From the IMG/VR virus record IMGVR_UViG_2913152634_000003: a stretch of DNA of 42,830 nt; one strand, 5' to 3'. Shown one piece after another: positions 27,001 through 30,000 of the stretch; position 1 is the first letter of the stretch; each line of letters starts with the position of its first letter. The stretch comes from a virus (lineage: Duplodnaviria > Heunggongvirae > Uroviricota > Caudoviricetes). The position numbers are program-made.

Positions 27001-30000
27001 TCAGCGGTGTGGGGCGTCCATATCTGGCAGAGGAGGGCACTGAAACCGTGGGCGTTACCGGGCTGACGGTGGCACCGGCATCCGCCAGTGTCAATGTGGG
27101 AGCAACCACCACGCTGACCTTTACAGTAAAACCTGACGGAGCCAGTGACAAAGCGATCAGTGTGCATTCGACAGATCCACAGACAGCCACTGTGACCCTG
27201 AACGGACTTGTGGCCACGGTGAAAGGCGTGAAGCAGGGCAGCGTCAGCATTGTGGGCATGACCGCTGACGGGAATTTTGTGGCTGTGGCTGCGGTGACTG
27301 TCAGCGCTGCAGGTTAACAGGACGATACTCATCATTTGCCCCGGTTATCCGGGGCTTTTTTGCAGGTGGAGAACATGATGTTTCTGAAACAGGGCACGTT
27401 TAATTATGAAAAGCAGTCCGTGGTGCTCAGTGAGCTGTCCGGGCTGCAGAGAATTGAATATCTGGCGTTTGTTCAGCAGCGAACGGCAAAGTTTGATGCC
27501 GAAGAGGGAGAACTGCCGGAGGCTGAACGACAGATTGCTTTTCTGCGGATGGGGATGGATATCAATGCCTGGCTGGTTTCCCGCTCACTGTGGAATGCGG
27601 AACAGTCTCAGGATGTTGAGACGCTTTGCGCATCCGTTATTACAACATGGTCGTATGATGCCCTGGGAGCGGGGGCGGAGATGGTTCTGTCGCTGAGCGG
27701 TATGGGAGCCATTGAGAATGCCGGGGATTTGGAGCATGAGGTGCTGACGCCGGAAAAGTCCTGACGCGGGAAATGCAGTTTGTCATGCGGCTTGCCCGGG
27801 AGTTCCGGCGGGCAGACTGGCGGCGGATGCTGTCGGAAATGTCGGCCACTGAGCTTGGTGAGTGGGGCGATTATTTCCGGATGCAGAGCTTCAGTGATGT
27901 GTGGATGGATGCGCAGTTTGCCTCGCTGAAGGCATTGATCGTGAGAATGGTGTCCGGTAGCAGTGATGCTGCGGTGGCTGATTTCAGCCTTTTACCGGAA
28001 GAGAACGGGATACCGGAGCGAACGGACGAAGAACTGATGCATCTTGGGGAAGGTATTTCCGGAGGTGTGCGTTATGGACCAGATAGCCAACCTGGTCATT
28101 GATTTGGGGATTGATGCGGCAGAGTTTAAAAATGAAATTCCCCGTATCAAAAACCTTCTGAATGGTGCAGCCAGCGATGCAGAACGGTCTTCTGCCCGTA
28201 TGCAGCGTTTTATGGAGCGTCAGACTCAGGCCGCCCGGCAGACAATGCAGGCGGCTTCTTCGGCTGCAACAGCCGCATCCGTCCATGCGCAGACGGTGGA
28301 GAAGAGCGCACAGGCTCATGAACGCATGGCCCGCGAGGTGGAGCAAACCCGCCAGCGCATGGAGGCACTGAGCCAGAAAATGCGCGAGGAACAGGCGCAG
28401 GCCATGGCTCTGGCGGAGGCTCAGGATAAAGCAGCTGCTGCGTTTTATCGTCAGATTGACAGTGTGAAACAGGCCAGTGCGGGGCTGCAGGAATTACAGC
28501 GTATTCAGCAGCAGATCCGACAGGCCAGAAACAGTGGCGGGATTGGTCAGCAGGATTATCTGGCGCTGATTTCTGAGGTTACGGCGAAAACCCGTGTTCT
28601 TACGCAGGCTGAGGAAGAGTCTACCCGACAGAAAGTGGCGTTTATCCGTCAGCTTAAAGAGCAGGCAACCCGCCAGAATCTTTCTTCTTCTGAGTTGCTT
28701 CGTGCCAGGGCTGCCCAGCTGGGGTAAGCAGTGCTGCAGAAGTGTATATCCGCAAAATGGAGCAGGCAGGAAAAGCCACGCATTCGCTGGGTCTGAAAAG
28801 TGCAGCAGCCCGCCAGGAGATAGGCGTTCTGATAGGTGAACTGGCCCGTGGCAATTTAGGAGCGCTGAGGGGATCCGGGATAACGCTGGCTAACCGTGCC
28901 GGATGGATAGACACACTGATGTCACCGAAAGGCATGATGCCAGGCGCGGTTATTGGCGGTATTGCCGCGGCCGTCTATGGTCTGGGTAAAGCCTGGTATG
29001 ACGGTCAGAAGGAGGGGGAAGAATTTAACCGCCAGCTGTCGCTGACGGGGCATTATGCCGGAGTCACTGCCGGGCAGCTGTGGACGCTCAGTCGTGCTAT
29101 TTCCGGGAATGGTATCACGCAACATGCTGCAGCCGGTGCGCTGGCTCAGGTGGTGGGGAGTGGTGCATTTCGTGGAAACGATATCGGTATGGTGGCGAGA
29201 GCTGCCGCACAGATGGAGCGATCGGTTGGCCAGTCGGTCAGCGATACCATAAATCAGTTTAAGCGGCTGAAGGATGATCCTGTAAATGCCGCGAAGGCTC
29301 TGGACAATGAGCTGCATTTTCTTACTGCCACTCAGCTTGAGCAGATACGCGTCCTTGGGGAGCAGGGGCGGTCCAGTGATGCTGCACGGATAGCCATGTC
29401 TGCACTGGCAGAGGAAACCGGTCGGCGTACTGCGGATATTGATAATAACCTCAATGCGCTTGGCAGTACGCTGAAGTATCTGTCTGATTTATGGAGTCGT
29501 TTCTGGGATGCGGCCATGAATATTGGTCGTGAAGACTCGCTGGATGAACAGATTGCCGCTTTACAGGAGAAAGTGTCGCGGGCGAAAAGACTCCCCTGGA
29601 CGGCATCATCTTCTCAGGTTGAATACGATCAGCAGCGTCTTAACGATCTTCAGGAGAAAAAACGCCAGAAGGATTTGCAGGATGCAAAAGAGCAGGCAGA
29701 GCGGAATTATCAGGAGCAACAGAAACGCCGTAATGCTGAAAATGCTGCACTGAACCGGATGAATGAAACGGAAGCAGCACGACATCAGCGTGAAATAGCG
29801 CGTATTAATGCCATGCAGTACGCCGATCAGGCTGTCAGGGATGCGGCGATACAACGTGAAAATGAACGTTACGAGAAAGCCCTGGCATCCGGTAAGAAAA
29901 AAACACGCGAAACCCGTAATGATGAGGCCACCCGGTTATTGCTGCAGTACAGTCAGCAACAGGCACAGGTGGAAGGACAGATTGCTGCTGCCAGACAGTC

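Follow-up and report, generated by a model that had tools for sequence, protein, structure and literature searches.

Why should a tape measure gene homologous to lambda H be divided between two reading frames? The question is raised by a 42,830-nucleotide stretch of viral DNA (IMG/VR record IMGVR_UViG_2913152634_000003; the whole stretch is called the window below), an E. coli prophage of the lambdoid type that lies between the genes potC and potB. At positions 28713-28727 the window reads GCC CAG CTG GGG TAA, with a GGGG run at 28721-28724 and the stop codon TAA at 28725-28727. In the -1 frame the last stop codon is TGA at 28691-28693, and this frame is open from 28694 until a stop codon at 31136-31138. 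A first inspection, made from the sequence alone (the sequence-only reading), had described a gene H lying in two frames, with the TAA stop in its CTGGGG context and the rest of H open from 28694 in the -1 frame, and this description was borne out by open reading frame (ORF) analysis, by Pfam and by comparison with lambda H. Three explanations had been offered with it: a programmed or leaky -1 shift, a genuine inactivating frameshift and a homopolymer sequencing error. The homopolymer error is now the best supported of them, genuine inactivation is possible but less likely, and the programmed shift fails the comparison with orthologs. The split is most likely an artefact, produced by an assembly that under-called a run of five Gs by one base.

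The evidence begins with the orthologs. In the alignment, the relatives read CTGGGGGTAAGC where the window reads CTGGGGTAAGC. The five-G reading encodes ...A Q L G V S S A A E..., and one G added to the window yields a 1021-aa protein identical to WP_001357479.1. When WP_001357479.1 was searched against the window with tblastn, it was recovered in two blocks, residues 1-217 and 217-1021, each 100.000% identical and overlapping at Gly217. The split is a true property of the window sequence and no chance pattern of ORFs, and the one-base deficit is the sole lesion in the tape measure gene. Megablast of positions 28000-31200, a 3,201-base query, returned full-length matches of 3,202 bases in E. 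coli chromosomes and in phages, among them mEp460, cdtI, Ayreon and Tritos. The three relatives that were fetched (99.9%, 99.5% and 98.6% DNA identity) all carry G5 and a single 3,066-nt coding sequence for 1,021 aa. Moreover, 20 further morphogenesis proteins tested by tblastn were found full-length in the window, without stop codons and at 88-100% identity, a divergent small-terminase-like protein excepted.

The two frames belong to one gene, as the sequence-only reading had supposed. A separate function of the first frame (ORF1) is unsupported, as ORF1 carries no Pfam domain, has no independent homolog in a collection of ~15 billion proteins, and forms one continuous frame with the remainder of the gene in all relatives. 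The proposed lambda-H-like N-terminus was also confirmed, with residues 4-56 of ORF1 matching residues 5-57 of lambda H (34% identity, E 8e-9), and residues 287-1021 of the intact ortholog match residues 106-853 of lambda H (BLASTP, E 7e-51). Judged by these two separate blocks, the protein is lambda-H-like and carries ~180 additional residues towards its N-terminus; residue 217, where the frame breaks, falls inside this added region. All three Pfam tape-measure domains, led by TMP_2 at E 2.9e-49, sit in the second frame (ORF2; Table 1). The gene order V-G-T-H-M-L is present, as found by tblastn of the structural proteins of strain ESBL 15 on the window and by the annotation of relatives, and the tape measure gene occupies its place between the G/T tail chaperone genes and gene M. 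The single uninterrupted frame that marks a lambda gpH-type tape measure is intact in all G5 relatives, whereas in the window it is broken at 28721-28727. The ~180 residues without a lambda H counterpart (1021 versus 853 aa) correspond to window positions 28240-28930, about residues 57-286 of the tape measure protein (TMP); at 1.5 Å per residue, they may predict a tail ~25 nm longer.

The four-G allele is a singleton. Among the 1,991 places at which a 71-nt query over the site matched 1,826 complete-genome E. coli records, none was exact, and every match listed for this query spans 72 bases. A 32-nt query, each 28-mer of which crosses the G run, gave zero matches in 5,426 complete E. coli genomes. 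The four-G allele was likewise absent from 17/17 phage records, which show the same 72-base pattern as the E. coli copies, and the exact four-G pattern was found in none of the GTDB species representatives, IMG/VR or the JGI metagenomes. At the protein level, the products of ORF1 and ORF2 are both absent from the ~15 billion-protein collection. The sole exact ORF1 match, on a Logan contig (L006, SRR35744849), was rejected: its gene call is cut by the contig end, and the contig ends with five Gs and is therefore no four-G allele. This short-read unitig stops exactly at the tape measure G5 run, and its gene call mimics the 217-aa product; the contig end may be a graph break at the homopolymer.

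A stricter comparison is given by assemblies of the same prophage, which were located by exact look-up of the J protein, the portal, the terminase and the exonuclease. Relatives with zero substitutions tile the whole 42.8 kb: L051 over window positions 1-13888, L052 over 1-9947, L027 over 11418-32923, L009 over 23530-42830 and L010 over 23530-38747. Against these, the window shows exactly four differences over 42.8 kb, each of them one G lost from a G run (Table 1). At the tape measure site, 28721, the G5 of the relatives has become G4, and L009 and L010 each encode an intact 1021-aa tape measure protein. The share of runs that are shortened grows with run length in the relatives, from 1/32 of the G5 runs and 1/5 of the G6 runs to 2/2 of the G7 runs. 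For A/T runs, no difference was seen against L004 (positions 1-21397, with runs of up to 8), L027 or L009. It took the zero-substitution relatives to establish that the window alone carries the contractions at 5660, 9286 and 28721. The one-base deficit, its uniqueness and the restriction of the differences to G runs are all direct observations.

Other assemblies of this prophage lineage also differ mostly in homopolymer calls. L024 (CP027104.1), a sister assembly that speaks for the technical explanation, matches the window without a mismatch over 21.5 kb; its tape measure gene has G5, its run at 14909 is short as in the window, and its private contractions (Table 1) break its own terminase and protease-capsid gene calls. 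L027 has one private indel besides, a C-run insertion at 25478, and L015 has G8 at one run where all others have G6. The genomes of the window and of L024 are both absent from the RefSeq complete-genome set, which fits a quality exclusion but is no proof of one. Taking all four indels against L004 as errors of the window proved partly wrong. At 5114 the window keeps an intact ydfC, and the L004/L007 clade bears a real deletion; at 9286 the G6 state is in frame and widespread in other prophages. The contraction at 9286 restores a 54-aa ORF (9156-9320) that is annotated as frameshifted in relatives and is intact in thousands of other prophage copies. The ydfC protein itself is ubiquitous by exact look-up.

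Table 1. Coordinates of the tape measure gene, its upstream neighbours and the homopolymer differences (window positions; L024 rows give window-equivalent positions)
Feature	Position	Strand	Remark
G6 run, intergenic	5660..5665	+	G7 in all relatives, including zero-substitution L051 and L052
G6 run, inside small ORF	9286..9291	+	G7 in all relatives of the prophage lineage, including zero-substitution ones
G5 run, intergenic, downstream of tRNA cluster	14909..14913	+	G6 in all relatives but sister assembly L024 (CP027104.1)
L024 private contraction T7 -> T6	15593
L024 private contraction G5 -> G4, terminase gene	19219
L024 private contractions G6 -> G5, protease-capsid gene	22997 and 24171
Tail chaperone genes G (27378-27764) and T (27773-28102)	27378..28102	+	conserved programmed -1 G-T shift
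ORF1, first 217 codons of tape measure gene (lambda H homolog)	28074..28727	+	frame of ATG 28074, TAA 28725-28727
GGGG run, site of one-base deficit	28721..28724	+	GGGGG in all relatives; ortholog alignment and blastn against L009, L010, L021, L023, L024, L027, L018
ORF2, remaining tape measure gene, -1 frame	28721..31138	+	homology from Gly217 codon 28721-28723; TMP_2, TMP_4, Tape_meas_lam_C

Four single-G contractions with zero substitutions in 42.8 kb, at a rate rising with run length, bear the signature of homopolymer under-calling in a consensus sequence. The one-base homopolymer indel in the tape measure gene is contradicted by every related genome, and the remaining differences from near-identical genomes are also run-length calls, with 0 substitutions. 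Long-read assembly errors are chiefly false deletions in homopolymers (PMC12007338), and a singleton frameshift that BLASTp validates is expected to stem from sequencing error (PMC3711429). A technical origin of the deficit is most likely, and we infer it indirectly, from these comparisons. The real prophage would then read CTGGGGGTAAGC, its 1021-aa tape measure gene would be whole and in one frame, and the same under-calling would have shortened the three other G runs of the window. Such an artefact would require no biological mechanism; an ordinary lambda-H-type tape measure would lie between the G/G-T chaperone genes and M.

Several observations weigh against an assembly artefact. Real slippage of replication is also frequent at G runs. 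Errors do not abound in the window, its other structural genes being intact and 4/5 of its G6 and 31/32 of its G5 runs unchanged, and at two other sites it has the in-frame state (the intact ydfC at 5114 and the open 54-aa ORF at 9286). The run at 14909, being short in L024 as well, may be a real allele of the lineage. In addition, real decay of this prophage family is seen in other strains, in the form of IS1203 insertions, the nonsense codon of L023 and large deletions of morphogenesis genes. As a matter of quality control, the frameshift is unfit to be reported as a case of recoding or as a tail-defective call until reads confirm it. The case also suggests a rule: where run lengths of homopolymers are all that separates a sequence from its zero-substitution relatives, a frameshift located in one of these runs should be treated as technical until shown otherwise.

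The explanation that survives best beside under-calling is a genuine and very recent one-base slippage deletion in the G5 run, which would inactivate the tape measure gene. With translation ending after residue 217, heads would be made with few or no tails, and the prophage would be newly crippled, retained by its host for its cargo (paa and the NleG and EspM2 effectors). Homopolymers are natural indel hot spots, deletion derivatives of the prophage occur in many strains, and apparently real, independent knock-outs of the TMP gene are found in relatives (IS1203, the TAG of L023 and the early end in L018). On account of these knock-outs, a very recent genuine frameshift keeps some weight, although we consider it unlikely. 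No other copy among >2,000 has the allele, nor has any assembly examined of the identical prophage, and the allele is accompanied by three more one-G contractions with zero substitutions in 42.8 kb. There is no other decay in the gene, both halves of which keep 100% protein identity to the intact allele; the lesion is neither shared by descent nor joined by further decay, as that of a genuine pseudogene would be. Set against approximate E. coli mutation-accumulation rates, the ratio of indels to substitutions here is off by orders of magnitude, even for mismatch-repair mutators, and mutators would alter long A/T runs too and add transitions. Real slippage also fits poorly because generations enough to shorten both G7 runs would bring tens of substitutions in 42.8 kb.

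If the four-G allele is real, a trickle of wild-type protein might still be made by a -1 slip of the P-site tRNA-Gly while UAA occupies the A site, a so-called shifty stop; we regard this as very doubtful. The tRNA-Gly would re-pair from GGG at 28722-28724 to GGG at 28721-28723, and GUA AGC would follow. Since the homology blocks overlap at Gly217, the slip product would be identical to the wild type. A 'savior indel' with low-level compensatory frameshifting in a G run is known for herpesvirus thymidine kinase (PMC5009743), and the prophage would, on these terms, be its phage counterpart, a naturally leaky tail mutant. Very little leakage would be expected, as G_GG.N tetramers shift at a background of ~0.1% in E. 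coli reporter assays (PMC4066793). At so low an expected slip rate, most ribosomes would stop after 217 residues. Lambda gpH is required for tail initiation and length, and the lack of a tape measure would therefore mean the lack of tails. The 'leaky' shift proposed from the sequence alone thus fails as a programmed event and would hold only as a by-product of a real allele. Were the four Gs real, the junction peptide AAQLGVSSAAEVYIR in a lysate would mean either -1 slippage or a G5 subpopulation. Reinitiation at GTG 28742, giving an N-truncated TMP from a real allele, was considered and set aside; no Shine-Dalgarno sequence lies upstream. Even a real allele would be an ordinary event, one further step in which a lambdoid prophage decays while keeping its cargo, and translation would leak only slightly, if at all.

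It is highly improbable that the phage makes a 217-aa N-terminal protein together with the full-length tape measure by a programmed -1 ribosomal frameshift or another form of recoding. G_GGG_UAA would permit P-site re-pairing one base back beside a slowly decoded stop codon, a weak Shine-Dalgarno-like AGGG (28707-28710) lies 10 nt upstream, at the spacing used in dnaX, and a real programmed -1 shift (G-T) is found ~960 nt upstream in the same operon. However, the two-frame layout occurs in 0/1,991 E. coli places, in 0/17 phage records and in no identical-prophage assembly examined. The ortholog comparison, which the sequence-only reading had itself proposed as a refuting test, finds the two-ORF structure in no ortholog; all of them, including those of phages mEp460, cdtI and Ayreon, have G5 and a single ORF. 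The flanks, AGGG included, are identical in genomes that need no shift, and are therefore not selected for shifting. The site, CUG_GGG_UAA, has neither a slippery heptamer X_XXY_YYZ nor an efficient tetramer (A_AAG, U_UUY, C_CCY); in a systematic E. coli reporter survey G_GG.N tetramers were at background, and the only signal was ascribed to spurious initiation (PMC4066793). Folding of the 80 nt that follow gave -16.3 kcal/mol, no better than shuffled sequence (mean -19.6; z = +1.16), no Rfam element was found at the split site, and ORF1 would bring neither a domain nor an independent homolog of its own. It is less credible still that the G run is a phase-variable contingency locus toggling tail production. 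Homopolymeric G/C tracts do drive phase variation in some bacteria (PMC3711429), but a 5-base tract is far below known contingency tracts, that study having screened tracts of >=7 nt, and the run showed no length polymorphism across the 1,991 E. coli places and the 17 phage records. Transcriptional slippage was ruled out, as programmed cases need runs of ~8 or more, usually of A or T (PMC3711429).

The genuine programmed shift of this operon lies upstream, between G and T. In this stretch the -1 frame opens at 27740, and just before the stop codon of G stands an A_AAG motif (27755-27758). The site (window 27740-27773) is CCG GAA AAG UCC UGA, with A_AAG in a G_GAA_AAG context and a shift window of 25 nt. 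The lambda G-T motif, which we take to be G_GGA_AAG, differs from the G_GAA_AAG of the window. G-T frameshifting is conserved across long-tailed phages (Atkins 2016, PMC5009743), and A_AA.G is the most efficient tetramer (Sharma 2014, PMC4066793).

Damage to the tape measure gene was also observed in relatives with other lesions. L023 (ABTHEW010000006.1) carries a CAG-to-TAG nonsense codon in the TMP gene (window-equivalent 29816), the TMP ORF of L018 (CP141901.1, 18948-21713) ends early at 921 aa, and the O157 records H45-H52 have IS1203 insertions in the TMP gene. Decay of the prophage has thus hit the tape measure gene repeatedly. The potC/potB prophage also circulates as at least three deletion derivatives, mostly in chicken isolates, with deletions from terminase to tail fibre, from portal to J and from protease to NleG; these derivatives (L004, L007, L014-L017, L020, L022, L025 and L026, compared with window 21400-37900) all retain the effector and adhesin cargo. 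Judged by near-identical annotated relatives, the cargo of the window (~9900-10700 and 39500-42830) includes the paa adhesin, NleG-family effectors (DUF1076), EspW and EspM2, and this virulence cargo suggests that the host is an attaching-effacing E. coli. The annotation of the 99.97%-identical L004 places three tRNA genes (Ile, Lys and Arg) at ~14580-14830, downstream of an antiterminator gene; in L008, a more divergent relative, no tRNA-Lys is annotated. The J tail-tip protein (33529-36924) has 1131 aa and is 91.9% identical, with 28 gapped positions, to the 1159-aa J of strain ESBL 15; the exact J variant of the window was found on 21 contigs.

How, then, does the split compare with known systems? 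With the 'savior indel' of herpesvirus thymidine kinase (PMC5009743) it shares a one-G indel that breaks the frame and a slippage that could restore the native protein. However, the thymidine kinase has a G7 run, with drug-resistance selection and a frameshifted product both documented, whereas the window has G4, no evident selection and an indel that is probably unreal. Like the lambda G-T shift, which lies immediately upstream in the same operon, the H split places a -1 shift near a stop codon in a short overlap; the G-T shift is present in all relatives and uses a lysine A_AAG site, while the H split is unique to the window and sits on a non-shifty G_GGG. The homopolymer deletion errors of long-read and pyrosequencing assemblies (PMC12007338) are likewise single-base and run-length-dependent, with all references disagreeing and genes fragmenting into apparent pseudogenes; unlike such errors in general, those of the window would affect only G runs, no A/T run differing in the comparisons made. 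The closest match to the gene itself is the tape measure of mEp460/cdtI-type lambdoid phages (mEp460 AFM76050.1; WP_001357479.1), which has the same position between G/T and M, 98.6-99.9% DNA identity and the same TMP_2, TMP_4 and Tape_meas_lam_C domains, and is colinear with lambda H at both ends. Where lambda H has 853 aa, this family has 1021 aa, with ~180 more residues near the N-terminus. The window copy departs from the mEp460/cdtI-type gene in being broken by a one-base deficit at codon 217-218.

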